Origin: Candidatus Micrarchaeota archaeon
GTDB taxonomy: Archaea; Micrarchaeota; Micrarchaeia; Norongarragalinales; Norongarragalinaceae
Assembly: GCA_016207165.1 (NCBI GenBank)
Contig: JACQQD010000008.1
Location: forward strand, 112,386-176,385
Length of the DNA stretch: 64,000 nucleotides
Direction: 5' to 3'
Shown: piece after piece, positions 2,914 through 40,052 of the stretch
How the letters are laid out: each line of letters starts with the position of its first letter
Numbering within the stretch: position 1 is the first letter of the stretch
Position numbers and translations under genes: made by a program
Notes under the pieces: model-generated
What the model saw: the letters and a program-made list of their open reading frames with translations, nothing else
Databases searched by the model: none
Told to the model about the DNA's origin: nothing

Positions 2914-4350
2914 ATGGCTTTCAGGGGTCTTTCCCGGCTTCACTGGGTCGTCTTGGCCATTGTTTTCGTTGCTGGCGCCTTATGGTATCTTTCTTCCACT
3001 TCTTCCGCTCCGGTCCGCGATTTAGGCGGTTCTGCCTCTCCAACCCCTTTGGCTGTTTCCGACCAGACGCTTTCCGGAACCCCAACGCGCATTTCGTATG
3101 AGGGTTCCACGGTTTCGCTTGAACGACACGTTTCCGAGGACGGCAAGACGCATACGTCGGTAGTTGAGAATTTGGGTGAGTCCACGGTGAGCGTGGGCAT
3201 CATCACGGTTGTTCCCAAGTCGCTGGCTTCCTCGGCTTCGCAACTGGGGCTTTCAAAAGATGTCGACGTTCTGGAGGACGACCCCATCGTTCTTCGCCTC
3301 GTTGACTTGGGTTCCGGTCAGAACGCGGCTCACAGCATTGTTTTGAAGTCAACGGCTGGACGTGACCGGGGCGTGTACCACATTTTTGTTTTGAATGCTA
3401 AGATGTGGTTGAACCAGTACACGGAGCAATTCGCGGAATTGGTGCAATTGCTGAAGACCTTGCCGGACAACGTTTCCAACGATGAGGCGAACCAGGTTTC
3501 GGATGCCTTCAGCCGTATTCTGAACGGAGACGGTGATCCCGCAGCCCGCATTGTTTCTGCGAAAGAGTACTTGGCGTCCAAGTCCACCGGCGCTGTCACG
3601 TTTGCGGTGGACGAGGACCAGCCGTTCGGCGACGTCCAAATGCAATTGTCTATTGACAACCCCGTTTCCTTGTATGCTTTGCCTTTGTCCAATGAGTTCA
3701 CCTCGGTGCTGGGTTTGGGTACGCACTTGGGCGTCCGCCAGGGTTATGCTCACGTGCAAGGCCAAGATTCCGCTTTCGGCGGTCTTGAACCTTCCTATTT
3801 GCAGGACTACGTCAAGTTGGTTCAGACTAAGGACGGCGGTTATGCGTTGTTGGCGGACTTGCAGGCTCCGGCGCGCCAATCCCTGCCGGAATTCTCGGTT
3901 TCCGGACGCGCGGAACTGTTCTTCTCTGGCCGGCCCAACACGGCTATTTTGGTTCCCATTCGCGTGGACTTGCTGCCGGCCGAGCACTTCGGCGACTCCA
4001 GCCTAGACACGCCATTTGACTTGATTGCGTACGATTGCGGCGACTTGCAAAACGAGTTGGGCATTGCGGAACACGCGCTTTTGACCAAGGCCGCGCAGGT
4101 GGACGAAGTCAACGACCAACTGCTTTCAGGAGACCAAGTCACGCTGGTTAGTTCCTTGCGCGTGAACTTGGAGCGTTTTGACGGCTTTCCCGAGGAATGC
4201 CAAGGCTTGCCGGAGATTTTTGAAGGAATTCCGTTCAAGGCCAGAAAAATCAACGTGGTGACTTACTCTTACAAGGAGGGCGAGGCCACGTGGGAGTTGG
4301 TGGAAGAAGAACCACCTACTTTTCGGGAAATCGAGGTTTCGGATTCATGA
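2914..4350 (+). CDS. N-terminally membrane-anchored or secreted surface protein, paralog of 5429..7189
   Basis: 478 aa. N-terminal TM helix (VVLAIVFVAGALWYL). Juxtamembrane PVRDLGGSASP and LEDDPIVL motifs are shared with the 586-aa paralog. Confidence 0.55.
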   Translation: MAFRGLSRLHWVVLAIVFVAGALWYLSSTSSAPVRDLGGSASPTPLAVSDQTLSGTPTRISYEGSTVSLERHVSEDGKTHTSVVENLGESTVSVGIITVVPKSLASSASQLGLSKDVDVLEDDPIVLRLVDLGSGQNAAHSIVLKSTAGRDRGVYHIFVLNAKMWLNQYTEQFAELVQLLKTLPDNVSNDEANQVSDAFSRILNGDGDPAARIVSAKEYLASKSTGAVTFAVDEDQPFGDVQMQLSIDNPVSLYALPLSNEFTSVLGLGTHLGVRQGYAHVQGQDSAFGGLEPSYLQDYVKLVQTKDGGYALLADLQAPARQSLPEFSVSGRAELFFSGRPNTAILVPIRVDLLPAEHFGDSSLDTPFDLIAYDCGDLQNELGIAEHALLTKAAQVDEVNDQLLSGDQVTLVSSLRVNLERFDGFPEECQGLPEIFEGIPFKARKINVVTYSYKEGEATWELVEEEPPTFREIEVSDS

Positions 4351-7192: not shown

Positions 7193-10100
7193 ATGCGTTT
7201 TTTTGTCTTCATTGTTTTCCTGGTGTTGGCGGGTTTGGCTTCATCCGCCGCCTTTGACTTGGCCAACCAACCCAAAGTCAGCGTATACATCGGCTCGGAT
7301 GCGTCCGTTCCCCATGCTTCCGGCGGGGCTTCGTACGCGTTTCGTTTGGCCGGCCCCGCCGTGGTCGGACCCAAGGGGATTGAGGCCAAAATCCAGGCCA
7401 CGCGTTCCGGCCAAGCCGAGTGTCCCGGTACAATCAAGGTCAACACGCAGGAGCAATACGCGTGCAACACGGTGTGCATTCGGTTGATTGGCTACCGGAC
7501 GCAAGCCGCCATTGATGCGGACAGCGCTTCCGGTCAACAACCTCTTTCCCAAGAGGACGCCATCGGCGAGCACGCTTTCATGCAAATAGGTTTGAAGTCA
7601 TCGGATGGCTCGTGTAATGTCGCGCCGACGGCCGCGGATGTCCAGGCCCTCGCGCAATCGTCGTCGAAAATGACTCCTGAAGAGCAGGCCCGCGCAAGCC
7701 AATCCATTTCCGGCGGCTATCACCGCTTCCTGAAAGACGTTTCAATCGATGTGGCGTTGCTGGCTGGCATCCGCTTCAAGCGGGCGACGCCGCAATACTT
7801 GGAGCACCCCCGTGAATTGACGGACTTGATGGCCAGCTTACACAAAGTGGAATACCTCGTCTTTCATGCCCCGACGTTTTTGGGCGTCCGCGATACCGTG
7901 GAACAATCCCAACTCGCGATTCGCGCGAATTCCGTGGAGTTGGCGTCAAGCGCCATTGCCTCCTGCGGCGCTCATCCCGCCTTTTTGGAGGAGTTTTCCG
8001 TGAATGGTTATGGGCCCAGTTCACTGTTTTCCGTTGGCCCCTCCGATGAATGGATTCGCTCGTCGTACAAGACGGCGGCTTCCTTGGATGAAGCCAAACA
8101 ATTTCTTTCCTGCATCGGGCAAATCAAGGGCGAAAAGGGGTACTTCTTTTTCGACCGGAAAATTGACCCCAAGACCATCACGCGCGCCTTGGAGGATCCA
8201 GGGTACACGTTTTTGACGGAGTACGACAAGTCCCGCCGGCAGGAAGGCAACCTGGATGTGACGCAAGCGGACCGCGTGGTTTTCGCCTACGAATTTGGCA
8301 AGTACCTGTATACGCAGAAAGAGGACGCCGACGCCATCAACGTGCTTTCCGCCGCGATTCTGGAAGCCGAGCGGTTGCGCATTCCCAACGTGGTTCACCC
8401 TCAAAGCGGTTTGGGACTCCAGAAAGACGCGTTTGACACCATCAACGCCGTTTTGGCGCGGCAGGGCCGGGAACCCATGGCGACGCTGGGCGGTTGCCTC
8501 AACGGCTTCTTGAATCCGCTTATCATCCTAAAACCTCTTCAGTTGCTCAAGATAGGTGCCAAGACCGGCGCCGTCATGTCTGCGGGCGGCCGCGTCATCC
8601 ACTTGGGCTTTGCTTTACAAGGCGGTCAGCAACTCATTGGCGCGGCCCAAACCGCGCAGGAGTCGGCTTTGGACTCCACCATTTCGGGTGTGTGCGGGAC
8701 GGTCATGTTTTTTGGCGGCCTGAAAGCGGGTCTGACGCGAGCCCCCGCGGCGTCTACGGAAATGGTTCGAACGCCTGAGACAGGCAAATGGGTGTCGCGT
8801 CCGGTCATTGGAGGCTCCAAGGCGGCGTCGGCGCGTGCCTTGGTCTTGAACAAGGAATTGGCGGATACCCCGGTTGAGTTGGTTGTACAACGCTTCACCA
8901 AGTTTTCAAGCCAGCTTAAACCCGGTGAATCCGCTGGAGAGTTTTTTGTGCGGTTGACGGTGAAAGGCAAAGAATTGACTATTCGCGTCACGCCCGAAAA
9001 CCATCGAGCCGTTTTGGCGGACGTGTTGCACATAAAGGCGACGCTGGCCATGGAAAAAGCAGACGCCGCCCAGTTTTCTCCCAGTTCCATCAAGGAGTTC
9101 CAGCAGGCGCTCTCGGAATTGTCGAAAGTGGATTCGGAGAAGGCATCATTCTACAACGAGTTCAATTTCCAGTTGAATGAACTGCTGAACGCCAAATCGA
9201 AGGAGGCCAAGCAGTCCATCCAGGAAAAACTCATCGGTTTGGTCTTCCAGCTATCCAAGCCTGAAAATAATCCCGCCAAGCAGCGCATCACGTTCTTGCA
9301 AGCGTTGCCTTCCGGCAAAGCCCAGACTCTGGATGGCTTGACCCCTGCCCAACCCCCTGGAACCGCTCAGCCCAGCGATCGCCGGACCCTCACGGAGCGC
9401 TTGCAAGCCGCGACGGAACTCTTCAAGAAGGCGAAAGAAAAGTTCGGCCGCAGCCTTTCGCGCGTGAAACAGTTCTTTTCGTTCAAGGACGGCCGGAGGA
9501 TTGAAGTTCCGGAAGAGGCGTCCAGCCAAATCGCGGACGCCCACGTGGCGGCGTCGGCGACCGGCGAAGCCCAACAAGTCGTTGTTGAGGTTTTGGTGAA
9601 CGGAAAGAAGCAGAACATGCCGGTGTTTGTTCGCCCTGGCGGAAAATTTTTGTCGATTGAGGAAATCAAGCAAGTGGCCAAAGACGGGAAAACCACGATT
9701 GCGGGAGTAGTTCGACTCGGGGAATTGGTCGTTTTTGATACCCGCCCCCAGAACCTGCGCTTTTTGCAAACTATTCGCCTCAATGACCTGCTTTCCGACT
9801 CCAGGCCCCTGCCTGCTCTTCGTGAATCGGTTACGGCGTTGGCGGATGCCGAAACCCTGTCAACTGATCCTTCAAGCGCCGGCAAGTCAACTCGTCCAGG
9901 TGACGCCGTCCAATTGCCTGAAACCCGCTGGAAGGATGCGTTGACGCGTCTGGGGTTAAGGCGAAATGGAAAATATGATGCCTACTACTTGGTTGAAGGT
10001 GCGGCGTTGCGGAATGGGGTTCCCCTCCGTTTCGAAGTGACTGGATCCGACAACCACGTCGGTTTTCTGGTTTTGAAAATCATCCGGAACAAAATTCCGG

Positions 10101-12905: not shown

Positions 12906-13655
12906 TCATTTCGGCATTTTCTGGATGGCGAGGCGGGCGGCGTCATCAAAATCCACGGGGTTGGGGCTCAAGGCGTTCATTTCCGTTTTCCAGATTTTTT
13001 CGGTTTGCCGTACGCGTTTTTGGAATTCATTGGCGTTGAAGGTTTTTTCGTAGTACGTCAGTTTGCCGTTGACGAGTTCTTTGTCGGGGACGGCGTTTCT
13101 TCGTAAAAGAAAGTAGAGGTCGTACAGGTCGCGGGCGGATTGGCGGGTGAGGATGGCGCGGATTTTTTCGGCGGCGATTTCCGTTGCGTCCATGGTCTTG
13201 AGTGCGTAGGGGAACACGTCGGGATACGGCGGTTGAATGCTGGTGATGACGGGTTCCAGACGCGTTTTTTCGCGTAGGCTGAATTCAAGTTGCACCGTGC
13301 ATTCGCTGATGGGTTTTCCCATGTAAAGCGGGCCGCGGACGCGCAGTTTGGCGGTTTTCGAAACGGGGGTTTGACTGGTTTTCCACGTGGGTTCGGAAAA
13401 GCCCGCTGAAGCCAAAAACGCGGAGGCATTATCTGCGTCGGGTTGTTCTTCCTGGTCCGCCAGCGTAAAGTCCAAGTCCTCGGAGTAGCGGGGAAGCTGG
13501 AAGGCTTTCTGGAGGCAGGTGCCTCCCTTGAAGACGCCGGCAAACCCGGTGCGCGACAAGTACGACAAAAGCCAGTGCTGGACGTAGTCTTTCTCTTTTT
13601 GGCCTAATGTGAATCCCGGCGGCCCGTATTGGTCGAGTCCTTTCCGGTCAAGCAT
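12906..13655 (-). CDS. abiEii: AbiEii-type nucleotidyltransferase toxin (DUF1814)
   Basis: 249 aa. GGTCLQKAF..YSEDLDF nucleotidyltransferase motif. Overlaps the upstream AbiEi-like gene by 8 nt. Confidence 0.65.
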   Translation of the reverse strand: MLDRKGLDQYGPPGFTLGQKEKDYVQHWLLSYLSRTGFAGVFKGGTCLQKAFQLPRYSEDLDFTLADQEEQPDADNASAFLASAGFSEPTWKTSQTPVSKTAKLRVRGPLYMGKPISECTVQLEFSLREKTRLEPVITSIQPPYPDVFPYALKTMDATEIAAEKIRAILTRQSARDLYDLYFLLRRNAVPDKELVNGKLTYYEKTFNANEFQKRVRQTEKIWKTEMNALSPNPVDFDDAARLAIQKMPK

Positions 13656-14214
13656 GGCGCATCAGGTTTTTCAGGCGTTTGTTGGCGGCGGCGCTGGACA
13701 AGTAAGGCGGAATTTTTCCGGCTTTGACGTGGGCCAGTGCTTCCATGATGATGGCCGCCGGACAGCTTTTGGGGATGCTGATGGCGTCGGCCACGGCTTT
13801 TTCGGGTGTGGCCAGGAACAGGTTGTCTTTTTTCTCGTAGGCCCGGAACTGGTTTTTAGGGACGCGGTATTCCTGGACGGGTGTTCCAAGGACCTGATAC
13901 TTTTTTGCGTTGCGCGTGACGGCAAGCTGGATGGTGCGGTGGGGTTGTGTGGTCAATCCGTGCAAGTGCAATGCGGTGTGGAAAGACACGTAGGCGGGGG
14001 TTGAAATCTCGCAGGCAACGGCTTCATGCATGGCATCGGAAAACGCCCACCAACCGCGATGGACCAAAAAAAGGACGCCTTTTTTGTGGAGGCGATGCAG
14101 GTGCAGACGCGCGTACGCCGGGTTTTGGGCCAAGGCGACGAATTCTTTGGTGCGGAAGGCGGCGCGCCCGGAACCCCGAAGAATTTCTATGATTTTATTG
14201 CTTTTCATTATCAA
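13648..14214 (-). CDS. abiEi: AbiEi-like antitoxin/transcriptional regulator
   Basis: 188 aa. Gene order and overlap with the AbiEii gene. N-terminal wHTH-like region. Confidence 0.55.
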   Translation of the reverse strand: MIMKSNKIIEILRGSGRAAFRTKEFVALAQNPAYARLHLHRLHKKGVLFLVHRGWWAFSDAMHEAVACEISTPAYVSFHTALHLHGLTTQPHRTIQLAVTRNAKKYQVLGTPVQEYRVPKNQFRAYEKKDNLFLATPEKAVADAISIPKSCPAAIIMEALAHVKAGKIPPYLSSAAANKRLKNLMRHA

Positions 14215-14320: not shown

Positions 14321-15433
14321 TCAGGGTAAGTAGATTTTTTCGTAGGCTTTCGTGGTGTTATCCCAGTTGAATTGCTTGAGGACTTTCTTTCGGCCGTTTC
14401 GACCGAATTTCTTGGAGGTTTTCGGGTCGGCCAAAAGTTCGTTGGTTTTTTGGGCCAGGAGCTTCGGGTTTTTCGGTGGAACCAAGAAGCCGTTTTGGTT
14501 TTGGTCCACGACTTCGGGAATGCCGCCGGTTGTGGTTGAAACTACGGGTTTTCCGGAGGCCATGGCTTCAAGCAAAACCATGCCGAAGGGCTCCCACAGT
14601 GAGGGAAGGACGAAGACGTCGCAGGCGGCGTAGTATTGGGCGATCACGTCTTCGGACAGCTCGTCGGTGATGAAGGTGACGGGCGCCTTCTTTTTTTTCG
14701 CGTATTTTTTCAGGGTTTTTTCAAGGGGCCCGCGTCCAATGATGACGGTGTCGGCGTTGATTTCCAGGGAGGCGTCGATGAGGTATTTGAGGCCTTTTTG
14801 TTTGACGAGGCGTGCGACGCACAAGACGAATGGTTTTTCGTGGGGTGCGTTTGGGGTTTGTTTTCTCGGTTTGAAGACGTGGGCGTCAACTCCGTTGTAG
14901 GCCACGGCCTTTTTTCCGTGGAATTTTTTGGGGAGGGTGATGTCCAGCGTGTTTTGGCTGACTCCGAGGATTCCGGTGCACGCGTTCATTACAGTTGAAC
15001 CTATGGTGTCGTCAAAGGCTTGGCCCCAAAAGTCGGTGGCCACGTCAATGCCTGTGGTTCGGGCGTTGTGCAGGGTCAAGTACAAGGGAACGCCGTATTT
15101 TTTGGAGGCGGCCACTAGGTCCAGTCCATAAAAGAATCGGTTGTGGGCGTGGACGAGGTCCATGTGCGGCAAAAGTTTGGCGAGGTCTTTGGCGTGGTCC
15201 GGCATGATGGGGATGGGTGGGACGAGGGGTTGGGGTAAGTCTTCCAGGACCCAGGCGTTGGAGCGTACTAAGTGCATGCCGTGAAGGTCCTCTTTTTTTG
15301 GGGTGTTGGGCAGCTTTGCGGTCAGGACCGTGACGTCGTGGTTCTTGGAGAGCCGTTTGCCGACTTCCAGGACGTGTTTTTCGGTGCCGCCTTGGTAGGG
15401 GGAAAAAAAGGGGTTGAGCATGAGGATGCGCAT
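14321..15433 (-). CDS. Glycosyltransferase family 4
   Basis: GT4 signature EPFGMVLLEAMASGKPVV. Probable true start MRILMLNPFF at 15433. The longer ORF to 15523 adds a non-conserved N-terminal extension. Confidence 0.7.
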   Translation of the reverse strand: MRILMLNPFFSPYQGGTEKHVLEVGKRLSKNHDVTVLTAKLPNTPKKEDLHGMHLVRSNAWVLEDLPQPLVPPIPIMPDHAKDLAKLLPHMDLVHAHNRFFYGLDLVAASKKYGVPLYLTLHNARTTGIDVATDFWGQAFDDTIGSTVMNACTGILGVSQNTLDITLPKKFHGKKAVAYNGVDAHVFKPRKQTPNAPHEKPFVLCVARLVKQKGLKYLIDASLEINADTVIIGRGPLEKTLKKYAKKKKAPVTFITDELSEDVIAQYYAACDVFVLPSLWEPFGMVLLEAMASGKPVVSTTTGGIPEVVDQNQNGFLVPPKNPKLLAQKTNELLADPKTSKKFGRNGRKKVLKQFNWDNTTKAYEKIYLP

Positions 15434-15618
15434 GCTAATGGTGACGGTGGAATTGGATTTAAAGCGTGACGGCTGACACGGGAAGAATTGTTTGTTGGTT
15501 ATGTTTTCGTTCGTCGGTTCCATTCGCGTCGTATTCGCTTGACGTATTTACTTCCGCTTCCTTTTTCATTTTTCCAAAGTCCCGCGGCGTTGTCCATGAC
15601 TTTTTTTCTGAGTTTTAT

Positions 15619-15782
15619 AGCAAGACCGGCAAATGAAACAAACCGCTTGGCGGTTTGTTGCATGCTGCAAGCCGTTATCGGCTTGCATCATTTCACGACG
15701 AATAGGCCGGTCTTGCTAGACAGCACAGCACAAATTGCTATGGCAATTTGTGTGGCCTTGCAAATCTTAGCGATTTGCAAGA
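15619..15782. other. Block of five perfect, mutually unrelated palindromes (9-13 bp arms, 3-4 nt spacers)
   Basis: tagcaagaccggc/gccggtcttgcta (15619-15631/15707-15719). aacaaaccgcTTGgcggtttgtt (15638-15660). tgcaagccgTTATcggcttgca (15666-15687). cacaaattgcTATGgcaatttgtg (15730-15753). cttgcaaatcTTAGcgatttgcaag (15758-15782). Confidence 0.7.
15691..15725 (-). promoter_or_regulatory. Conserved intergenic motif 1 (CTGTCTAGCAA-N6-CCTATTCGTCGTGAAAT), copy upstream of GT4
   Basis: Near-identical 34 nt copy at 26000-26033 upstream of HMG-CoA synthase. Both have the same orientation relative to the downstream gene, and both are followed by a TTGCTATA box. Confidence 0.5.
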
Positions 15783-15882
15783 AACCAAGACTATTGGCTT
15801 GGGAAACTTTCTTGGTTTGCTGTATTGATGCCATCGATGTCATTTCGCGTCAAGTTCTGATGTTTTCTTCGATTTATTCGTT

Positions 15883-17136
15883 TCACACGGTGACGGTTTT
15901 TCCTTCGGTTGGAGCCGATGCGTCGAAGCCTTCGGCTTTGAGGTCCGCGACGAGGGCTTTGGCGGCGGATTCGTCGCCGTGCACGCAGAAGACGTGTTTG
16001 GGGTTGACGGCTTTCGCGTAGGCCACCAGCTCGGGGCCGGAGGCGTGCGCCGAGAACTCGAATTGGCTTACCGGGAGGTTGACTTTGTCGGAGTAGCCGT
16101 TGAACCGCACTTTTTGGCCGTTTAGAAGCGCGTAGCCGTTGGATCCAGGGGCTTGGTAGCCGGTTAACAAAACGACGCCGTTTTGGCGGTGGTTCAGAGC
16201 CTTCAAATAGGATAATGCGGGTCCGCCGTCAAGCATTCCGGCGGTGGCGATGATGACTCCGGGTTTTTTGACGGCGGCTTGGCGTTGCGTGTGGGATTCC
16301 ATGAAGCGCGTGCGTTTTACGGCGTCGCGCAAGAGGTTTGGGTTCTTGATGTAGGAGGGAAAATCCAGCATGATGTCGGTCACGGTTTTGGCCATGCCGT
16401 CCAAGTAGAAATCGGCTTGAACGCCTCTAGCTTGTAAAATGCAGAGGATTTCCTGCGCTCGGCCGATGGCGAAAGCGGGAACCAAGACGGTTTGGTTGTG
16501 GTCGACGGCGTCTTGGACTTGGTCGCAGAAGCGTTTTTCGAGTTCGTTTCGGTCGGGGTGGTCGGCTCCGCCGTACGTGCTTTCCGTGACCAGCACGTCG
16601 ACGTCGCTTTTGGGTGGCTTGGCGCCGGCGTGAAGCCGCGTGGGTTCGGGTTTGAAGTCGCCGGTGTACAAGAGCGTTTTCTTGTTTTGGATGAGGACTT
16701 GCGCGGCGCCCAGGATGTGGCCGGCGTCGAAGAACTCGAAGCGGGTGTCTTCGTAGAACGCGTATTGGGCGTTGTAGGGAAGCGGAATGGCGTGTTTGAG
16801 CAGGGTCTTGACGTCTTTGCGGTTGTAGGGTAGCGCTTTCTTGTTTAAAATCGCGATTTTTTCGGAGTCTTCCCACAACAAGTTCACCAAGGGCAATGTG
16901 GGAAAGGTGGCGAAGGCGGGGATGGGGTGGTGTTTGTAGAGGGAGGGCGCGGCGCCGGAGTGGTCCAAGTGGGCGTGGGAGAGAATGAATGCGTCGGCTC
17001 TGATTTTCGAGAAATCCGGCATGCTGTCTTCTTCCCGGATTTTCATGCCCGCGTCCAAGACGATTTTGACGTCGGATTCGACGAGAAACGCGCTTTTGCC
17101 GACTTCTTGGCAGGCGCCGATGAAGGTGAGCTTCAT
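15883..17136 (-). CDS. Beta-CASP/metallo-beta-lactamase RNA-processing nuclease (aCPSF2-like)
   Basis: 417 aa. HAHLDHSG metallo-beta-lactamase motif. Beta-CASP length and architecture. Confidence 0.75.
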   Translation of the reverse strand: MKLTFIGACQEVGKSAFLVESDVKIVLDAGMKIREEDSMPDFSKIRADAFILSHAHLDHSGAAPSLYKHHPIPAFATFPTLPLVNLLWEDSEKIAILNKKALPYNRKDVKTLLKHAIPLPYNAQYAFYEDTRFEFFDAGHILGAAQVLIQNKKTLLYTGDFKPEPTRLHAGAKPPKSDVDVLVTESTYGGADHPDRNELEKRFCDQVQDAVDHNQTVLVPAFAIGRAQEILCILQARGVQADFYLDGMAKTVTDIMLDFPSYIKNPNLLRDAVKRTRFMESHTQRQAAVKKPGVIIATAGMLDGGPALSYLKALNHRQNGVVLLTGYQAPGSNGYALLNGQKVRFNGYSDKVNLPVSQFEFSAHASGPELVAYAKAVNPKHVFCVHGDESAAKALVADLKAEGFDASAPTEGKTVTV

Positions 17137-17191: not shown

Positions 17192-17491
17192 TCAGAGGGG
17201 TGTGGCGTGTTGGAGGACGTCCTTGATGATGACTGAGGTTTTCGATACTTTTTGGAATTCGTCGGGGGTATAGCACAGCAAGTCCGCCACAATGGGCACA
17301 TCGGTGTGGCGCCAAATAAGGCCTCCCCGGTTCACGAATGGTGTTGCCTTGAATTTTTGGCTGATGATGATCAAGTCGTAGTCGGATTGGGCTTTGGCGG
17401 TGCCTTTGGCCCGGCTTCCGAACAAGTAGATTTTGGCGTCGGAAAAAAGGAGGCGTATGTCCTTCAGTAAGGCGCTTAGTTTTTCATCCAT
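17192..17491 (-). CDS. Minimal nucleotidyltransferase (MNT, pol-beta superfamily), orphan
   Basis: 99 aa. LFGSRAKGTA..SDYDL motif. No HEPN partner adjacent. Confidence 0.55.
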   Translation of the reverse strand: MDEKLSALLKDIRLLFSDAKIYLFGSRAKGTAKAQSDYDLIIISQKFKATPFVNRGGLIWRHTDVPIVADLLCYTPDEFQKVSKTSVIIKDVLQHATPL

Positions 17492-25954: not shown

Positions 25955-26001
25955 TTACAGTAAACCACGAATGTTTCCCGACAAAATAGTCGTGGTTTAC
26001 T
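25955..26001 (+). promoter_or_regulatory. Palindrome cagtaaaccacga-N19-tcgtggtttactg containing conserved motif 2 (CCCGACAAAATAGTCG)
   Basis: 13 bp perfect arms. Motif 2 recurs at 37647-37664 in the same orientation relative to the downstream gene. Confidence 0.5.
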
Positions 26002-26033
26002 GTCTAGCAAACTCCGCCTATTCGTCGTGAAAT
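26000..26033 (+). promoter_or_regulatory. Conserved intergenic motif 1, copy upstream of HMG-CoA synthase. A TTGCTATA box lies ~20 nt before the ATG.
   Basis: Matches the reverse complement of 15691-15725. Confidence 0.5.
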
Positions 26034-26069
26034 TTGCGGGGTTTGCTATACTGGAAGGTTTATTGTTCA

Positions 26070-29033: not shown

Positions 29034-29471
29034 TCAGCCTTCCACGATGACGGTGCCTTTCACGCCGGAATCAAGTTCTTCAAACGAGTACTCGCCGGGT
29101 TCGGTGAACTGTTTTTCGAATTTTTCTTTGTAATTGAGCGGTTCGGAGAGCTCTTCTTCCAGTGAAATTATTTTTTGCTTTTGGCTGTCGTAATTGATCC
29201 ATTGCACGATGGTTCCTGTTTTGACGGTGGTGGTTTCCGGCGTCAATCCGTTTTCGGAGAGCAGGATTTGCCGGGCCAGGGTTTGCGGGTCCGGCGCGCT
29301 TTCAAGTTCGGAGGGTGGTTGGGCATCCAGGTTTTCTCCGGGGGTTATTTGGTCAACGGTTTGACTGATTCGGTTATCCAAGTCCCGGAACGAGGGCGAG
29401 TCGGAAATGGGTTGCGTCTGGACGCATCCCAGAAGAGCCAAACCCAAAACAAGCAGCATCCATTTCATCAA
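29034..29471 (-). CDS. Secreted protein, possible lipoprotein
   Basis: Signal peptide MMKWMLLVLGLALLGC. Confidence 0.4.
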   Translation of the reverse strand: MMKWMLLVLGLALLGCVQTQPISDSPSFRDLDNRISQTVDQITPGENLDAQPPSELESAPDPQTLARQILLSENGLTPETTTVKTGTIVQWINYDSQKQKIISLEEELSEPLNYKEKFEKQFTEPGEYSFEELDSGVKGTVIVEG

Positions 29472-29477
29472 AAACGC

Positions 29478-30395
29478 TCACCTGGATAACGCTTGCAAGT
29501 CAAGATATTGGTCGTTGACCGTGCACCCTCGGCCGTCCACCCACTTGCAGAAATTGATTCCCAACGCGCCTCCTTGTCCGGTGCTACGGCATTGGGCCTC
29601 CGGAATTTTCTGGCATTGCTTCTCCAGTTGCGCAATGGCGGGATCGTTGTTGCGCACGGTTTCCGGAGTTGCAGCGTATGCGCCGGGGTTGGTGCAACAT
29701 ACTTCTTGGGGCGACTGGCAACTTTGGAATCCGTTGAATGCCTGAGCGATGGCTGGCACGATGTACGCGTCGCTTCCGCCGAATTGGCGAGCCAGTTTCT
29801 TGACTTTCTCTTGGAATTGCCCGTCCCTGACGATGTCCTTGGCTTCCGTCATTTTCCTCCAGCCTGGTTCTTGAGAGGAAGTGGGGCATTGGGTGACGAA
29901 GCACTGCCCGCTTCTGTGTTCCAGCGTTACGTCAACAATGCCGCGGTAGGGCCACGTTTTTGGGTTATTGGAGTCATACAATCGGGGCTCGTAGCCGCGG
30001 TGCGTGATGACGTGGCCTGTGGACAATAGGTTCAGGTCGCCCACGCAAGCCCCTCGGCCTCGAATGGCGGGCGGAGCCGGCTGGGGTTTGGGTGGCGCCC
30101 CTTTCACGGTGACGACTTGGTTGTTCGTGCCCAAAATTTTTCGTTCGTCGTCTTGCTGGTAGGCTACGGTGGTAATAACGAAATATTTGCCTGGAGTTAC
30201 CTGCAAATTCACTTGCTTTGCCGGTGGGCCTCGCTCCGAATATTGTCGTTTATACTCGGCATCCGCAAAATAGGGCACGTTAAACTTGTTGGCCACGGTT
30301 TGGCGGTCGCTGAATCGCTGGACGACGATGTCGATGGTTGGGGCAACCGGGCCGGTGTAGTCGATGCGTGTGGTGACTACAACTATAGTCTCCAC
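29478..30395 (-). CDS. Cys-rich extracellular domain protein. Possibly the C-terminal part of a fusion with 30280..31872 through a frameshift.
   Basis: 305 aa with 10 Cys. Overlaps the upstream ORF by 116 nt in a different frame. The upstream ORF ends in a Pro/Thr-rich linker. Confidence 0.4.
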   Translation of the reverse strand: METIVVVTTRIDYTGPVAPTIDIVVQRFSDRQTVANKFNVPYFADAEYKRQYSERGPPAKQVNLQVTPGKYFVITTVAYQQDDERKILGTNNQVVTVKGAPPKPQPAPPAIRGRGACVGDLNLLSTGHVITHRGYEPRLYDSNNPKTWPYRGIVDVTLEHRSGQCFVTQCPTSSQEPGWRKMTEAKDIVRDGQFQEKVKKLARQFGGSDAYIVPAIAQAFNGFQSCQSPQEVCCTNPGAYAATPETVRNNDPAIAQLEKQCQKIPEAQCRSTGQGGALGINFCKWVDGRGCTVNDQYLDLQALSR

Positions 30396-31872
30396 TGGAT
30401 TTTACGCTAACACTTCGGAGTCGGCCTTCGCCTGGCAGCGACGACGCAGGTTCGGGTTCTTGAGGACCGGAAACCTGAACTTCCTTGGGCGTTTCGGTGG
30501 CCTCTTTGGGCGTTGTGGCCGGCGGCTCCGGCAAGTCCAGGTCCGCGGTTTGGCGGATGGTCAAGACCACGTATTGTTTGGGGATGCGTTCCAGCCATGG
30601 CGCGTCCAAGGGGTTGTCACCGTTTTTGACTTGGTCTTTGTAGGCGGCCGCAATTTGTTCACGGGTGGGCCGGCTGAACATGAATTGGAGGGCGATTTTT
30701 TCCTTGGCTTCTTTTTCGCCAAGCTTAGCGCCGGCGGCCAAGCGGTCGGCGCTGGGAAGCGTCGACGTTTTTCCGTTGGAAAGCGCGACTTGAGAGACGA
30801 TGTCGTTGCCTTGGAACGTGTTTTGCCCGCCGACGTTGAACGAATGGCCCCAAAAGTCCTTGAGCTTGAACCGGATGCCTCCGTCCTGCGAGGCGTCAAT
30901 GATTTCAATGCGGTAACCTTGGCCGAATGTCAACGTCACCGGCGCGTTGGCGATTTGGCTGACGTCCAGCAAGTATTGGGCGGTTTGTTGGGGTTTCACG
31001 TGGTGGGCGACGGCGGCCAGTTCCGGTGCGGCAAAGCGCTTGGGCGTTGGCTGGTAGCCCTTGGATTCGCCGCGGAAGACTTCCGGGTACGCGTCCATGA
31101 ACACGGCGTAGTCGCCGTTGGGCGCGTATTGGAGTTGCGTTCGGCCACTCCACGAGAAAGCGGGCGACGTTCCCGTCGGTCTTCGGAGTCGTCCGGGGTT
31201 GACGCTGCGCCGGATTTCCAGCGAGTCGAAACGCGGAGCGGATCCGGCTATGGACTGGAAAGCGGCTTCGTCGAAAATCACGGGTTTGGCCATGGCCACG
31301 ATTTTGGCGTTGTCGGCTTGGGCGTCAAGCCACCCGCCGCGGACCACGTCCGTGCTGTCGTAGCGGAGCGCAACCGAAGGGATGTGAAACAAAGGGTAGA
31401 ACTGGCCATACGCCTTGGTGACTTCCTGTTTCAGTTGGGCGTCCGTTTTCGCGTTTAGTTCTTTGTCGATTCGCTCGGATTTGACGAAGTCGCTTGGGAA
31501 AGAGAGGGCGGTTTTCGGGGTCTTGGATTGCCAGACGCTGGCGTCGTTGCCGGCGGCACGGATTTCAATGACTACGACGAATTCACTGCTTTTCGGGGAC
31601 GCCAAAGGGGTGGCCTTGATCAGTTCGTCTTTGGATGCGTAGTTTTCCAAGGACAAGTCGGCTTGGATGTTCACGAAGTTTCTTTGTTCCGCCGACGTTT
31701 TTTCAACCAAAACGAATGCGCCATCGGTTTTTTCGACGGCGTCCACCGAATCCAGGGTGTAGGTTCCCCCGTCTGAAAGCGGGTGGAACGAGATGCTGAC
31801 CGGCGCCGCGGATGCGGCGGACGCAAAAAGAATGAGGACGGCCAGGATGTGCCAAGCGGACCGATCGTGCAT
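30280..31872 (-). CDS. Secreted hypothetical protein with C-terminal PT-rich linker
   Basis: Signal peptide MHDRSAWHILAVLILFASAASAAP. 530 aa. Confidence 0.45.
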   Translation of the reverse strand: MHDRSAWHILAVLILFASAASAAPVSISFHPLSDGGTYTLDSVDAVEKTDGAFVLVEKTSAEQRNFVNIQADLSLENYASKDELIKATPLASPKSSEFVVVIEIRAAGNDASVWQSKTPKTALSFPSDFVKSERIDKELNAKTDAQLKQEVTKAYGQFYPLFHIPSVALRYDSTDVVRGGWLDAQADNAKIVAMAKPVIFDEAAFQSIAGSAPRFDSLEIRRSVNPGRLRRPTGTSPAFSWSGRTQLQYAPNGDYAVFMDAYPEVFRGESKGYQPTPKRFAAPELAAVAHHVKPQQTAQYLLDVSQIANAPVTLTFGQGYRIEIIDASQDGGIRFKLKDFWGHSFNVGGQNTFQGNDIVSQVALSNGKTSTLPSADRLAAGAKLGEKEAKEKIALQFMFSRPTREQIAAAYKDQVKNGDNPLDAPWLERIPKQYVVLTIRQTADLDLPEPPATTPKEATETPKEVQVSGPQEPEPASSLPGEGRLRSVSVKSSGDYSCSHHTHRLHRPGCPNHRHRRPAIQRPPNRGQQV

Positions 31873-31996
31873 GGTGTGTTATACGCGTTGAAAGCGCTTA
31901 AAAGGGTTTTGGGGTTTCCAGGTTCCGGCTTCGGAATCTTTTTAACCGCCCGAAGCCTGCTTGTTGTTCGGAAGGCCTTTTTCGGGCGGTTTTTTC

Positions 31997-35493: not shown

Positions 35494-37310
35494 GCGGCTT
35501 CGTGGTGCAGGGCTTTTGGCAGTAAAAGCGTCAGGGCGGCGTCTTTTCCGTGATCCAGTTCCCGTGCCATGTGTTCCAACACCGTTCGCGGGTCGTCCTT
35601 ATCGGTACGGAGGTTTCGCCAGTGCCGGCGCCAGCCTTTACCCAGTTTGAGTTGGACGGCGTTTTCCTGCAGTTCTTGCGCGGTCAGGTTGACGCCGGAA
35701 CGCCTTGTCAATTCTGTTGCCAGAAATTCGTAGGCCTGTTCCCTGCTTTGGGGGAGCTTGGGCACCGGTAAACTTGCCGCTTTAGCTCCGGCGAGGTCCT
35801 TGTACTGGCTTTGCAGGCGCTCCCGTTCGCTCTGACCGGAAATGCCGAGGCTGTACAGCAGCTTGTTGAGGTTGTGCCATGTATCGGCTTTTGCGCCGGG
35901 ACCCTTGGGCGGTTTTCTCACCCGGTTTCCAAGAGAGTCAATCCACCAGTCTTTGTCTTCGAGGATCAGGTTGCCGGTGTTGTTGACCACGGCTTTGGCG
36001 ACGTGTTGCGCAAAGCCGTCCAGTCTGTCTTGGGTGAAGTGGGGGTCCACCTGGGCTTTGCGGCGAAGCAATAGTTCGGTGACTTTGATGAAGTCGTAGC
36101 CGGCGTTGGGGTGGTGTTCATGGACTTGGGCAAGCGGGACGCCCAATTCGGCGGCCACGGCTTTTTGGGCGGCGGCTTGGAACGCGTTGGTGGGCGGCGC
36201 TGGCGTTTTTGCGGGGGCCGGGCCGGGCGTCAACGTGATTTGAGGCGGCTTGCCGCCGGTGGTGTGCGTGAACAGTGGCGTCGGGGCTTCAGCCCCGGTC
36301 GCGACTGCGGCTGGCGTGGGCTTGGCAAAAGATTGTTCGATTTGGTCCGCGATGAAGCCAGGGGTTTTCAGCGCACCCAGCATGATGACGGCGCCGATGG
36401 CGGCGGCTTTGGCTCGTTCTTTCCAGAGAAACGGCGCCGGTTTTTCCGCGAAGCGTCGCATGGCTGTGTGTTTGTCTTTTCGGCGCAAAAGCTTGAGTTC
36501 CTCGATGCCGTGGAGCATCTGGCGCGGGGTGGCGGTGGCTTTGGAAAGGATGTCGTTCGTCATTTGGGCAGGAAAGTGCGAGAGCATGTATTCCCTCACC
36601 AAAAACTCGTTCACGTCGCCTTGGACGCGCCGCAGTTCTTGTTTGTACTCGTCCAAGGCGGCGCCTTTGACTTCAGGACTCCAGTTCGGCTCGGCGCGTA
36701 TGGCGTGGCTCAGCTTGTTTTGTGCGGTGTCGCCTTGCTCGGCGGCTTTCAGGTGTCCTTGAGCGACGTGGAGTTGTTGTTCCAGGAGGCGTTTCATCTC
36801 GTCGGGATGAACGTCGCTGGGTAATCTCCATTCCCGGTTGCCTACGCGGATGAAGTTGCCTCCCAGAAGCACTAGCGGGTCTTTTCTTCCGCTGATTCTC
36901 CTCTGGCGCTCCATGAAGGCGCTGAGCCTTGCCAGAAATCCGCGGAACATGAAGTTCGGTCCCAAGTCTCGGAATTGGTGCTGCAAGCGATTTTCGATGT
37001 CGGCGTCAACTTTTTCTTGGAGCTCAGCTTCAAGCGCTCGCGTTTTTTCCTCGAATTCCAGGAGTTTCGGGTTGGTGCGCCGCAATGCGTTTTCATGTTC
37101 TCTTTCGACCGCCGGCGCGTACCCGTCGCCCAGCATGGTTTGAACCCGGGTTTGGATTTCTTCGTGAAGGGCGCGTTCTTCGTGGGCGCTCAGCCGTGTT
37201 TTGATGCCTAAGACGGCGGGAGTCCACGTCTGCTCTCCCGCCCATCGCATGAGTTTCCTAGCGTGGTTTCGGAATGCTTCCAGGAACGTCATTTTTTCTT
37301 CCTCGGCCAC
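35490..37310 (-). CDS. Hypothetical bitopic membrane protein (606 aa). Cytoplasmic coiled-coil N-domain, one TM, Pro/Ala-rich linker, extracytoplasmic C-domain.
   Basis: TM AAAIGAVIMLGALK. Linker PTPAAVATGAEAPTP..PAPAKTPAPP. Confidence 0.45.
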   Translation of the reverse strand: MAEEEKMTFLEAFRNHARKLMRWAGEQTWTPAVLGIKTRLSAHEERALHEEIQTRVQTMLGDGYAPAVEREHENALRRTNPKLLEFEEKTRALEAELQEKVDADIENRLQHQFRDLGPNFMFRGFLARLSAFMERQRRISGRKDPLVLLGGNFIRVGNREWRLPSDVHPDEMKRLLEQQLHVAQGHLKAAEQGDTAQNKLSHAIRAEPNWSPEVKGAALDEYKQELRRVQGDVNEFLVREYMLSHFPAQMTNDILSKATATPRQMLHGIEELKLLRRKDKHTAMRRFAEKPAPFLWKERAKAAAIGAVIMLGALKTPGFIADQIEQSFAKPTPAAVATGAEAPTPLFTHTTGGKPPQITLTPGPAPAKTPAPPTNAFQAAAQKAVAAELGVPLAQVHEHHPNAGYDFIKVTELLLRRKAQVDPHFTQDRLDGFAQHVAKAVVNNTGNLILEDKDWWIDSLGNRVRKPPKGPGAKADTWHNLNKLLYSLGISGQSERERLQSQYKDLAGAKAASLPVPKLPQSREQAYEFLATELTRRSGVNLTAQELQENAVQLKLGKGWRRHWRNLRTDKDDPRTVLEHMARELDHGKDAALTLLLPKALHHEAA

Positions 37311-37606
37311 CGGCTAGCGATTTCATCGGATTGGGCAATCAATTGCCTGACTTCGTTTTGGAGTCTTATCACTTCCTTTTCTTGCTCTACTTGGGCCTGG
37401 ACACTCGTTTTTGCCAACTCCATCATGCGGCGGATTTCAAGGCCTGTATGGTCGTTTCCCGCTTGTTTGCGGATGTCTTGGCACACGGCTTCTGCGATTT
37501 GTCGAGCCGTTTCAGGATGGATGTGGTGTCTTTCGGGCAATTTTTTCTCGAGGAATGCCTGCAGGCCCGTCAGGCTTGCTTCCAACCGTTGCCTCGTTGT
37601 TTCCAT
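37289..37606 (-). CDS. Small coiled-coil protein (105 aa)
   Basis: Charged heptad-like sequence. Overlaps the downstream 606-aa gene. Confidence 0.4.
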   Translation of the reverse strand: METTRQRLEASLTGLQAFLEKKLPERHHIHPETARQIAEAVCQDIRKQAGNDHTGLEIRRMMELAKTSVQAQVEQEKEVIRLQNEVRQLIAQSDEIASRWPRKKK

Positions 37607-37630
37607 GATAGCAGATATTTAGGGAAACGA

Positions 37631-37689
37631 CTTTTTTATAGCAATCCCCGACTATTTTGTCGGGTCACTTTCTTGGTTTGCTGTATTGA
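37631..37689 (-). promoter_or_regulatory. Promoter region of the 105-aa/606-aa operon: motif 3, motif 2 and a GCTATAAAAAA box
   Basis: Motif 3 ACTTTCTTGGTTTGCTGTATTGA at 37667-37689 is identical to 15807-15829. Motif 2 cccgactattttgtcggg at 37647-37664. TATA-like box ~30 nt before the ATG at 37606. Confidence 0.5.
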
Positions 37690-37704
37690 CTTTCGTTTTT
37701 TTCC

Positions 37705-39465
37705 TTATTTTTTGGGTGTGCGCGGGCTTTTGGTTCGCGTGCGGCCGAGTTCGTCTTCGTAGGTGGACGCGCTTCCGTCTTGTTTCCAGCCGCCTTGGGA
37801 TACCGGGATTTCCTTCATGCGTTGGTGGTAGCGTTGCATCACGGTTTGGACGTCGGCGTCTTTCCATAGTCCGCCGCCGTCCATGCCCCAGGGAACGGCC
37901 CAATTCCAGCTTTTCAGGATGGCGCGCAGGTTTTGGTCGACGTCGGCTTTCGTCTTGTTCTCGTCCAGCCACGTGATGGATCCGTCTTTGACGCCTTGGT
38001 CGCGGGCCAAGAGGATTTTGGTGTGCCAGTTTCGGCCCCATAACTTCAAGTCGCCGACGTGGAGCGCCTTTTCTTTCTCGGCTTTGCGTTCCATGAGCAC
38101 TTCCAAGAGGATGCGGTCGTTGACGCCGGTGTTCTTGTCCGTGACGTTGGCCTGGCCTTTTTTGGCCGCGGATTGGAAGGCGTCCACGATTTGGTTGGCG
38201 TACTGGGCAAACAGGCTTGGTTCCGGGGGTGGCGTGGGTCCGCCGCCCGTTACTTCAGGCGCCGGAGTCTTGGGCGACGGCGTTTTCGGCGAATCGGGGG
38301 CTGTGGGTGAAGGCGTGACGGCGACTGAAGTTGGCGTCGCGCTTCTCCGGATGGCTGGCGGCTCGGCTTGTTGGGCGAAGTATTGTTCGGTTGCTGGCGC
38401 CACGACTTTGGGCCCGCTTACGCCCGCCAGCATGGTGGCCATGACGCCGACGGCCGCCCAGTTTTGAGCTTTGGCGGATTGGGAGAGTCTTTTGACCCAG
38501 GATTCGGCTTGCCCTGGGGTTTGGATGCCTTGCAGGGCCTTGTCCACGCCTTGCTCTTCGATGATGTGGACGATGAACGCGTGGTTGATGTCTCTGCGCA
38601 ATGCCAAGTTTTCGGCCAGGTCGTATCCGTAGCGCGAGCCGATGTGGTGTTTGAACAAAAGCTCCGCGATTTTGCGTTCGGCGTGTCCGCGGCCAAAGAG
38701 GCCTTGGACTTGGAACATGTCGCTCAGGTGCTGGGGTCCTCCGCCTTGTTTGTAAAACACTTTTCCGAGTGCGCGCTTCGTTTTGCCCCAGCCTTGCTTG
38801 ACGCCGTGCTTGAATTTGTTCAAGCGTCCTTCGGCAGGCAGGGCTTCTTGGGGTGCGGGTTCTGGGTGTTCTGAGAACTGTTCGAGAGCGGCTTGGTATT
38901 GGGCCAGCATTTGTTGGGGTGCGGCGTCGCGGTCCCATTCCAGGTTGCCGATGGTGGGGTGGTTTCCGCCGGTCAGTTCGTGCACGTCGTCGAGGTATTG
39001 TTGAAAGCTGAAGTGTTGTCCGAGGCCGAATCGGGCTCGGAATCTCTCGGATAAGTCGTCTTCGACGAATTGCTTGAGGCGGCGCGCGGTGGCTTGTTCT
39101 TGGGATTGTTTGCGTTGGGGGTGGCGTTCTTCTTCGCGTTCATGGCGGGCTTGCAGGCGAGCCGCTTTTTTCAAGATTTCTTGGACGGCGGATTCCAATT
39201 CGGCGTCGGCGTTGGCCACTCCCCGGGCGGTGGCCTCGGTGACGGCGTCATAGAAGTCTCGAGTCGTGTGGTCCTTGACTTCTCTTTCGATGGCGGCCTG
39301 GTACCTTTCCGCCAAGCCGTCCAGGGCGTGTTCGGTTTGCAGTCGAGCAAAGTCGTGGGCGGCTTCCCGGCTGGCGGAAAACTCGCCGAAGAATCTGGGC
39401 CAGTTGATGTTTTTGAGGTTTTCCCGGAACCGGTTCACGCTTTCCCGAATTTTTCGTAGGATCAT
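37705..39465 (-). CDS. Hypothetical bitopic membrane protein (586 aa), same architecture as 35490..37310
   Basis: TM NWAAVGVMATMLAGV. Linker PTSVAVTPSPTAPDSPKTPSPKTPAPE. Confidence 0.45.
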   Translation of the reverse strand: MILRKIRESVNRFRENLKNINWPRFFGEFSASREAAHDFARLQTEHALDGLAERYQAAIEREVKDHTTRDFYDAVTEATARGVANADAELESAVQEILKKAARLQARHEREEERHPQRKQSQEQATARRLKQFVEDDLSERFRARFGLGQHFSFQQYLDDVHELTGGNHPTIGNLEWDRDAAPQQMLAQYQAALEQFSEHPEPAPQEALPAEGRLNKFKHGVKQGWGKTKRALGKVFYKQGGGPQHLSDMFQVQGLFGRGHAERKIAELLFKHHIGSRYGYDLAENLALRRDINHAFIVHIIEEQGVDKALQGIQTPGQAESWVKRLSQSAKAQNWAAVGVMATMLAGVSGPKVVAPATEQYFAQQAEPPAIRRSATPTSVAVTPSPTAPDSPKTPSPKTPAPEVTGGGPTPPPEPSLFAQYANQIVDAFQSAAKKGQANVTDKNTGVNDRILLEVLMERKAEKEKALHVGDLKLWGRNWHTKILLARDQGVKDGSITWLDENKTKADVDQNLRAILKSWNWAVPWGMDGGGLWKDADVQTVMQRYHQRMKEIPVSQGGWKQDGSASTYEDELGRTRTKSPRTPKK

Positions 39466-40052
39466 GGTTTGGACTCCTGATGTCGGTCGTGCAACGCTTT
39501 TGCCGCGAGCATGACTTCTTTTTCATCTGCGGTAAGTTCTTCCAGCTCTTGTTTCCGGCGTCGTTCCGCTTTGGCCCATTCCCGGATTATCGCTTTGAGT
39601 CCTTCAGCGGTTCCACGCAGTTTTTGGCGTCGGGCGTATTCGGCGTCGTCCTCCGCATTTTTCACTCCTTGTTCGGCTTGGGCGAGGTGTTCCCGGATGC
39701 GGGTTTCGGCTTCTTCTCGATGTTCTTCCACTTGCTGCATGACGTGCTTCACAGCGGCCTGCGTCATTGGAGTAATGTGTTCTTCTTCCACTCCGGCTTT
39801 TCGGAGGGCGGCTTCGACTTCGGTCCACACGTGTTCGCCGTTTTCGCCGAAGATGTCTTCCAAGTGGCGGGCCGCAGCGGTTTGCAGTTGTCCGAACCGG
39901 TTGAAGTGGATGCCTTGCACGTCTGCGAAGGCGACGCGCATGCCGATGCGTCGCTGGAGCGTGAGCAGTTTTCTTCGGTTTTTCAACAGTTTTTCTCGGG
40001 TTAGCGCGTTGTCCAAGTCTTGGGGTGTTGTGCGGCGTCGTTCTTCTGGCAT
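39462..40052 (-). CDS. Coiled-coil protein (196 aa), basic N-terminus and acidic C-terminus
   Basis: 4 nt overlap with the downstream 586-aa gene. Confidence 0.4.
   Translation of the reverse strand: MPEERRRTTPQDLDNALTREKLLKNRRKLLTLQRRIGMRVAFADVQGIHFNRFGQLQTAAARHLEDIFGENGEHVWTEVEAALRKAGVEEEHITPMTQAAVKHVMQQVEEHREEAETRIREHLAQAEQGVKNAEDDAEYARRQKLRGTAEGLKAIIREWAKAERRRKQELEELTADEKEVMLAAKALHDRHQESKP

Follow-up and report, generated by a model that had tools for sequence, protein, structure and literature searches.

MITEs such as the promoter-carrying Correia elements of Neisseria and the archaeal SM elements of Sulfolobus are short inverted-repeat elements, non-autonomous, whose insertion between genes may introduce promoter-like ends. 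Another class of small repeats, the REP sequences, have stems of 5-13 bp and loops of 2-20 nt, occur as inverted dimers and in clusters, and include sub-families with compensatory changes in their stems (PMC3733652, PMC3116915). These papers describe REP/REPIN elements and their partners, the mobilising RAYT (Y1/HUH) transposases with genes flanked by the repeats, from bacteria only (PMC3733652, PMC3116915), and we found no archaeal REP-like family in the literature searched. Insertion sequences (ISs) also make use of such repeats: the IS110 family is the one most often found inside bacterial REPs (PMC1525189), and IS110/IS1111 targeting is known for REP, attC, and the Tn21 inverted repeats (PMC1525189, PMC11187229). 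Here, we analyse a hairpin-packed spacer of an archaeon, which is probably a nest of small non-coding mobile palindromic repeats, i.e., a REP/BIME (REPIN)-like cluster, and neither a purpose-built regulatory device nor an RNA gene.

The window, by which we mean the whole 64-kb stretch of DNA analysed, comes from a Candidatus Micrarchaeota MAG. The structured block occupies 15613-15825, within the interval 15524-15882 that the original prediction had delimited, and both neighbouring genes, one beta-CASP/aCPSF2-like and the other a GT4 glycosyltransferase, are on the minus strand. The spacer had been described as packed with five mismatch-free hairpins with stems of 9-13 bp and loops of 3-4 nt, one 13-bp pair enclosing two of the others. 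This description stands with corrections. There are four perfect hairpins, with stems of 9-10 bp and loops of 3-5 nt; the 13-bp pair does enclose two of them; and a sixth stem had been missed. The features of the block and its neighbours are the following:

14321-15523, minus strand: GT4 ORF on record, 400 aa, start at 15523
15457-15463, minus strand: TATA box of GT4 itself (TTTAAAT), 23 nt upstream of the ATG at 15433 and independent of the hairpin block
15618-15630 with 15706-15718: perfect 13-bp pair, enclosing H1 and H2
15637-15659: H1, perfect hairpin, stem of 10 bp, loop of 3 nt
15666-15687: H2, perfect hairpin, stem of 9 bp, loop of 4 nt
15729-15752: H3, perfect hairpin, stem of 10 bp, loop of 4 nt
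15757-15781: H4, perfect hairpin, stem of 10 bp, loop of 5 nt
15782-15790 with 15810-15818: sixth, split stem (AAACCAAGA with TCTTGGTTT), extended by ACAGCA (15720-15725) and TGCTGT (15818-23) and spanning H3 and H4
15883-17136, minus strand: beta-CASP/aCPSF2-like gene, ending in a stop codon that precedes the block by 58 nt in the direction of transcription

Such a concentration of hairpins is not expected by chance. Perfect hairpins with a stem of at least 8 bp number 11 in the entire window and those with at least 9 bp only five, of which four lie in a 145-nt stretch of the block; first-order Markov replicas give an expectation of 1.8 of the latter per 64 kb, or ~0.004 in 145 nt. The RNA folds much more stably than shuffled sequences (z-score of -9.3 for the minus strand and -7.9 for the plus strand), and so does the DNA of sub-blocks (z of about -7). 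Contigs from two other samples, L001 (SRR12113383) and L149 (SRR12113385), are 100% identical to the block wherever they overlap it, and both stop within it. A look-up with the GT4 protein gave no strain variant without the inserts, its sole return being an identical contig that ends in H1. Hairpin blocks of this kind split short-read assemblies and cause wrong calls of start codons, GT4 being an example. Its true start is probably the ATG at 15433 (MRILMLNP), which would give a 370-aa protein, judging from the conservation of the TTTAAAT box and of the MRIL start in L002. This 88%-identical relative keeps the box and the start of GT4 and, at the site of the block, carries genes for RHH, PIN, and nucleotidyltransferase proteins instead; the block therefore lies outside the conserved GT4 promoter.

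Several other observations concern this neighbourhood. A basic ORF of 32 aa (MDNAAGLWKNEKGSGSKYVKRIRREWNRRTKT, 15499-15597, minus strand) starts 22 nt past the TATA box at the end of the block; it is probably not a gene, as Pfam gives no match and the 105-aa ORF found behind another of the repeats described below is not similar to it. In L002, an unrelated perfect 8-bp hairpin (CAACGTAA-taa-TTACGTTG, 7295-7313) follows the stop codon of the aCPSF2-like gene, just before the RHH antitoxin gene, and the nucleotidyltransferase gene is on the opposite side of the aCPSF2-like gene from that in the window. Genes of toxin-antitoxin or defence type are dispersed over the window (12906-14214, 17192-17491, 53238-53651, and 54523-55476), namely AbiEii with a 188-aa partner, a minimal nucleotidyltransferase, PIN, and Fic.

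The original prediction regarded the stems as unrelated to each other and to any repeat family. This was wrong. The 13-bp pair and the split stem, which is 14 bp long, are the arms of one repeat unit, H1 and H2 are inverted copies of another, present four times in a contig from a different sample (L150), and H3 with H4 resembles H1 with H2 (p ~0.002). The first repeat, U, is a ~48-nt palindrome with 14-bp arms and a conserved loop of 18-19 nt (consensus CTATTyGTCGkGAAAywT, core GTCGGGAAAC). The block contains two U units in opposite orientation, so that the element is an inverted doublet. A search for the palindromes elsewhere, which the original prediction had proposed, found U at 25955-26051 and at 37637-37686 and the second repeat, h, in L150. 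Together with the focal block, the two further U copies make three U loci in the window by word matches, and the model of U (R1) found no further copy in the 64 kb. U also occurs in five metagenome contigs (L133, L150, L153, L154, and L157). The U features of the window are:

15613-15623, minus strand: outer end of the focal U doublet, reading TTGCTATAAAA, TATA-box-like and pointing outward to GT4
15617-15720, minus strand: U unit A, arms at 15618-15630 and 15706-15718, loop CTATTCGTCGTGAA^ATTT split by module X at the caret
15719-15825, plus strand: U unit B, left arm ACAGCA^AACCAAGA (15720-15725 and 15783-15790) interrupted by module Y at the caret, loop at 15791-15809, right arm at 15810-15823
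25955-26051, plus strand: intact U doublet between the genes of HMG-CoA reductase and HMG-CoA synthase, unit B at 25955-26004 and unit A at 26003-26051
37637-37686, plus strand: solo U unit whose stem has decayed, located upstream of a 105-aa ORF in a window-specific segment

Model R1 matches unit B at 15776-15825 (E=7e-10), and unit A has uninterrupted homologues at 26003-26051 and at 1408-1456 of L133. Read from 26051 to 25955, the intact doublet consists of TAGCAAACCCCGC, 18 nt, and GCGGAGTTTGCTA, followed by ACAGTAAACCACGA, 19 nt, and TCGTGGTTTACTGT; it thus has both of the large focal stems and none of H1-H4. L133, recovered in the metagenome scan, carries an uninterrupted doublet that is ~90% identical to the focal scaffold minus the modules X and Y. 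All copies of U and h are intergenic, and the doublets at the focal locus, at 26 kb, and in L133, L153, and L157 have their units in opposite orientation. L154 has a short-loop 'mini' unit where L153 and L157 carry full U units; hence, loop-less derivatives of U exist. A further fragment resembling a U arm (ATAGCAAACCGGC ... GCCGG) is found at 2815-2853 of L133 (minus strand), beside the second of its IS copies, and is possibly a decayed unit.

The arms of U vary in a coordinated manner. Across seven aligned units, compensatory changes affect 7 of the 14 pairs, 90.8% of the cells are paired, and the score was unmatched in 500 shuffles. G·U pairs are rare: the only two internal non-Watson-Crick pairs of the intact units are both G·U, in the 'sense' orientation. 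A CAA[AG]/YTTG core is common to the arms, which are less conserved than the loop. The doublet has terminal inverted repeats (TAYAGYAAACC/GGTTTRCTRTA), as MITEs do, and each of its outer ends reads TATAG/CTATA, forming a TATA box that faces outward. The end resembles the real promoters of this organism, where GC precedes TATAAAA, as at HMG-CoA reductase and GT4. The 11-mer TTGCTATAAAA recurs identically from 37644 to 37634, upstream of the 105-aa ORF, and similarity between the focal and the 37-kb loci does not extend past it, i.e., they share no larger duplicated cassette. The copy at 26 kb is flanked by two divergent promoters and precedes the TATA box of each, and its end TTTGCTATAC is a TATA box lying 27 nt upstream of the ATG of HMG-CoA synthase; because of this spacing, the U end may now drive that gene.

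The second repeat, h, is a hairpin of ~30 nt with the form AT[G/C]A-stem-loop-stem-G[C/G]AT, a stem of 9-11 bp with a 3-bp base, and a loop of 2-4 nt. With its flanks, H1 reads ATGA-AACAAACCGC-ttg-GCGGTTTGTT-GCAT, and the opposite strand of H2 gives ATGA-TGCAAGCCG-ataa-CGGCTTGCA-GCAT; the latter is the H1 design inverted, and the two overlap at GCATGC. The model of h (R2) scores H1 and H2 with E-values of 1.7e-8 and 1.8e-10. Two-hairpin modules of this kind form the family M, and the block would contain two of them:

15633-15691, plus strand: module X (family M), an inverted dimer of h holding H1 and H2, with h(+) at 15633-15663 and h(-) at 15662-15691
15726-15782, plus strand: module Y, holding H3 (15729-15752) and H4 (15757-15781) inside the left arm of unit B, its boundary ambiguous by 1 nt

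Module X is missing from the U copies at 26 kb and in L133. The four h copies of L150 make up two M modules in its left flank (M1 and M2, at 278-335 and 355-414), with the same architecture and linkers (GGATGC/TCAT) as X; they are interleaved with a remnant of the U loop (GCGACAAAATAG), after which comes a U arm. In the six aligned copies of h, 7 of 12 stem pairs show compensatory changes, including the base (ATG/CAT versus ATC/GAT), and 97% of the cells are paired. The stems differ by 13 double changes and by no one-sided (G·U) change. The fourth position of h is an A·G mismatch in five of the six copies.

H3 and H4 match model R2 only weakly (E ~1.4-2.6), and we rejected them as canonical h units for this reason. 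The modules X and Y as wholes are more similar than 99.8% of structure-preserving shuffles (p=0.0018). As this whole-module test is positive in spite of the weak scores of the single hairpins, we class Y as a diverged module, and we read it as an older second copy of M. The IS200/IS605-derived PATE has two different sub-terminal hairpins and inserts 3' of a fixed tetranucleotide; X and Y differ in their left flanks (..CAAAT vs ..CAGCA), and each has two hairpins that are inverted copies of one type. The uninterrupted doublet of L133 confirms two insertions: H1 and H2, in the loop of unit A (AAAT^TTCA), and H3 and H4, in unit B, whose left arm they divide (ACAGCA^AACCAAGA). The original prediction had seen the palindromes as insertions into a pre-existing promoter, between a motif 1 and a TATA box. 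That H1 and H2 were inserted between these two is supported by the uninterrupted scaffolds at 25955-26051 and in L133. That the promoter pre-existed is not supported: motif 1 is the loop of U unit A on the minus strand, the TATA box is the terminus of U, and in L077, the closest relative, the orthologous spacer at HMG-CoA synthase is entirely without the element.

Comparison of orthologous spacers, also proposed at the outset, found the block replaced in L002 and a 92-nt doublet absent from L077. The latter is a syntenic contig of ~82% nucleotide identity, whose spacer between HMG-CoA reductase and HMG-CoA synthase aligns with that of the window on both sides and lacks exactly the doublet. Three more distant relatives (L078-L080) are likewise without it at the HMG-CoA synthase spacer, the orthologous promoters of HMG-CoA synthase and GT4 in relatives with 88-90% amino-acid identity have no U element, and models R1 and R2 found no match to U or h in ~58 kb of relatives. 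These alignments show that U elements are gained or lost as units between close relatives. They reveal no clear target-site duplication and no empty-site junction at base resolution, the flanks permitting either TA or AT; such a junction is not definable because the relatives, including L077 with its empty site, are too diverged. Other parts of the region also vary. The window segments 29108-31931, 35501-37784, and 37884-39576 are absent from or replaced in L077, and the second of them holds ORFs of 606 and 105 aa without Pfam domains along with the solo U unit. In the operon of HMG-CoA synthase, thiolase, and DUF35, the genes abut or overlap in the window and L077, and A-rich spacers of 200-280 nt occur at 3211-3410 and 4576-4831 of L078 and at 12278-12557 of L080.

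Some of the metagenome contigs with U also carry ISs. In L133, two diverged transposase genes of the IS110 family converge on the U doublet. The elements are:

L133, 150-1403 and 1503-2760: IS1111-type ISs
L150, 421-1697: IS1111-type IS
L151, L152, and L153/L154/L157: further IS1111-type ISs, the whole set measuring 1261-1293 nt

Those of L133, L150, and L153 have sub-terminal inverted repeats (ATGT[AT]GAAA[AT]GCC), extensions of 7 nt on the left and 3 nt on the right, and a non-coding region of ~220 nt downstream of tnp, which is the layout described for IS1111 (PMC11187229). We infer a DPANN-type origin of L133, L150, and L153-L159 from related transposases that are annotated as Micrarchaeota or Diapherotrites.

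Both ISs of L133 and the 92%-related IS of L150 lie directly 5' of the AGCAA[GA] of a U arm (TAT^AGCAAGACC, TAT^AGCAAACCAAGA, and TCT^AGCAAACGG, the caret marking the junction), in three independent insertions. A 55%-related IS, of the P0260 type, has inserted three times at the U-U junction, in three different contexts, and the more distant copies of L151 and L152 at ..AT^AG.. of other sequences. The junctions show IS1111-type ISs inserting precisely at TAT^AGCAA of U arms and, on this evidence, U to be a programmed IS target. Every copy has, in its non-coding region, two short segments that vary with the sequences flanking this particular IS, namely with the left flank and with the complement of the right one: AGTCTAG, TTCTATAG, and CTTATAG match the left flank plus AG, and GGTTTGCT, CAGACT, and CAGTTTGCT match the complement of the right flank. 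Segments that track the flanks are predicted by the seekRNA/bridge-RNA mechanism (PMC11187229, PMC11208160). To judge from these matches, the segments resemble guides of the seekRNA/bridge-RNA kind that were retargeted naturally, in DPANN-type genomes. In the window itself, tblastn matches to IS110 transposases were at chance level, and there is no such ORF near 63.8 kb.

ARAGORN returned nothing relevant for the block, and a C/D-box sRNA was rejected by inspection, AUGAUGC being present on the minus strand and the D box absent. The exact 17-mer of the U loop had 52 matches in GTDB representative genomes, all bacterial and due to chance, exact words being a search that misses diverged copies. 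Four patterns (the H1/H3 consensus, U arm, U loop, and U loop plus arm) gave only chance matches in viral contigs. A GTDB genome scan seeded with the aCPSF2-like protein gave no relatives, and the sole return of an exact-protein look-up was a 2.4-kb Logan contig. Elsewhere in the window, at 51393-51500 (plus strand), Rfam matches (52 bits) a tRNA gene of 108 nt that ARAGORN missed and that presumably bears an intron.

Could the block be a structured RNA? It might be a non-coding RNA or a cis-acting one, e.g., the 5' leader of GT4 or, in the 3' UTR of the aCPSF2-like gene, a stabiliser or terminator, with hairpins kept by selection on RNA. The very stable fold (z=-9.3), the compensatory changes in both the U and h families, and the 'sense' orientation of the two G·U pairs of U would fit such a role, as would the position of the focal and 37-kb copies just downstream of a co-directional gene; many bacterial REPs have also been suggested to act as RNA hairpins (PMC3733652). 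We nevertheless consider an RNA function of this kind unlikely. Rfam provides no family match to the block even at E<=10, where the best score is 15.9 bits against a cut-off of 40 bits and nothing reaches the gathering score. The dimers are inverted, so any transcript has one sense and one antisense copy, and the copy at 26 kb precedes the TATA boxes of the two divergent promoters that flank it. The h stems have accumulated 13 double changes with no G·U intermediate, elements are missing at orthologous positions in close relatives, and they are nested within each other's stems. The original prediction, which favoured signals at the DNA level over a dedicated structural RNA, is supported in this respect. 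It had named two findings that would count against it. One was compensatory changes together with G·U pairs in related hairpins: the compensatory changes were found, and G·U pairs are lacking in h and infrequent in U. The other was membership in an abundant genome-wide repeat: the palindromes are members of repeats, since U and h recur, with an abundance that is known for 64 kb only, where there are three U loci.

Other readings assign the palindromes a role in DNA. An array of operators, in which GCAAAC/GTTTGC half-sites and the U loop are recognised by a transcription factor controlling mevalonate and envelope genes, is suggested by the TATA boxes adjoining all three U copies of the window, by the copy in the divergent spacer of HMG-CoA reductase and HMG-CoA synthase, and by the shared CAA[AG]/YTTG core of the arms, along with a loop that is more conserved than they are. 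The arms, however, are not fixed but co-vary, and complementarity is kept at positions that a dimeric factor would not read. In relatives (88-90% amino-acid identity), the HMG-CoA synthase and GT4 promoters work without the element, and in other contigs the U/h units are also found beside ISs and after unrelated genes, which makes this reading improbable. We regard as likewise improbable that the hairpins are single-strand recombination sites, folded like integron attC sites or the targets of another recombinase, and mark the boundaries of cassettes. Integron attC sites have R''/R' boxes and extrahelical bases, occur once per cassette, and are accompanied by a nearby IntI. Though the hairpins have an unpaired position (A·G) that is conserved close to their base, the flanking genes are variable and include toxin-antitoxin genes, and one subgroup of IS1111 targets attC sites (PMC11187229), the arms (AGCAAAC/GTTTGCT and CGCAAAC/GTTTGCG) by inspection break the R-box consensus (RYYYAAC/GTTRRRY) at 2-3 positions. 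Moreover, the copy at 26 kb is a bare insertion of 92 nt without a cassette, the window ORFs that were scanned include no integrase, and the units form inverted doublets and nest in one another. Finally, two Logan contigs end within the block, as they might if the palindromic joins were chimeras made by the assembler or by amplification. Such an artefact is hardly credible, given that three independent assemblies agree base for base where they overlap, including part of H1 as well as H3 and H4, and that homologous units and modules with sequence differences occur in unrelated samples.

We therefore read the block as mobile palindromic DNA, based on the inverted-doublet families, the stem changes that are exclusively double, the presence and absence of elements between relatives, the same nesting in two unrelated samples, and the targeting by ISs. 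It consists of three layers: a U doublet of two inverted ~48-nt units, with co-varying arms and outward TATA ends; module X, placed into the loop of unit A; and module Y, the diverged copy of M, placed inside the arm of unit B. The U and h units may spread as DNA hairpins, via single-stranded or cruciform intermediates, and a constraint at the DNA level could explain their perfect Watson-Crick stems, with which the absence of G·U in h fits. They would be moved in trans by an enzyme encoded outside the window, most likely a transposase of the HUH/Y1 type, as for REP/RAYT or IS200/IS605; a Pfam scan of 32 ORFs of 100-330 aa and of neighbouring genes in the window found no transposase or HUH protein, of the HUH/Y1 (RAYT) type or otherwise. 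Effects on the host are probable and would be secondary: the gene downstream could obtain its TATA box from the U end, and read-through from the aCPSF2-like gene would yield a very stable 3' structure. Alternatively, the strong conservation of the U loop and its constant position next to a TATA box could reflect a regulatory function in the host. As U ends are at the same time archaeal TATA boxes, a promoter could arise or be exchanged with every insertion, which would be an uncomplicated way for streamlined genomes to change their regulation.

A broader proposal, which is possible but in our view doubtful, is that Micrarchaeota genomes harbour a REPIN-like system in which U and h/M are self-propagating doublets, moved by an unrecognised archaeal enzyme specific for hairpins. 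They would insert preferentially into each other, rewire promoters such as that of HMG-CoA synthase with their outward TATA boxes, and serve as landing pads for RNA-guided IS1111 elements. If a comparable system exists in the tiny DPANN genomes, the genomic 'replicator' class would extend to the archaeal domain, raising the question of which enzyme moves it, and the associated IS1111 copies, with guides naturally retargeted to palindromes, would provide archaeal examples of bridge/seekRNA systems.

The comparison with known systems is as follows. U and h resemble promoter-carrying MITEs in being small intergenic inverted-repeat elements with promoter-like ends. MITEs, however, consist of terminal inverted repeats that enclose the place of a deleted transposase gene, and the present units are hairpins with conserved loops; we found no parent IS sharing their ends, and those of the associated IS1111-type ISs are unrelated. 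Known targets of IS1111/IS110 elements are REP for ISPa11, ISPpu9, and IS621, attC for ISKpn4, and the Tn21 inverted repeats for IS4321 (PMC11187229, PMC11208160). As in these elements, which are guided by seekRNA or bridge RNA, the insertion point of the present ISs within a palindromic repeat is always the same, and they have non-coding segments that match their flanks. They differ in coming from uncultured DPANN-type sequences, with guide-target matches deduced from sequence alone, and the window itself has no IS. The REP/BIME/REPIN elements are the closest relatives in kind. Their GTAG/CGTC tag is absent here, the ends being TATAG/TACAG/CTAG (U) and ATGA/ATCA (h), the host is an archaeon (Micrarchaeota, DPANN), and U has a long conserved loop and outward TATA boxes. 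REP/BIME copies number tens to hundreds per genome, compared with three U loci here, within 64 kb. Like them, U and h are short extragenic palindromes with stems of 9-14 bp, the U doublets and the h dimers (X and the M1 and M2 of L150) are inverted and clustered, and stem variants are kept by compensatory changes (7 of 14 pairs in U and 7 of 12 in h). Also like them, U is present or absent between close relatives, and ISs of the IS110 family choose the units as targets (PMC1525189).
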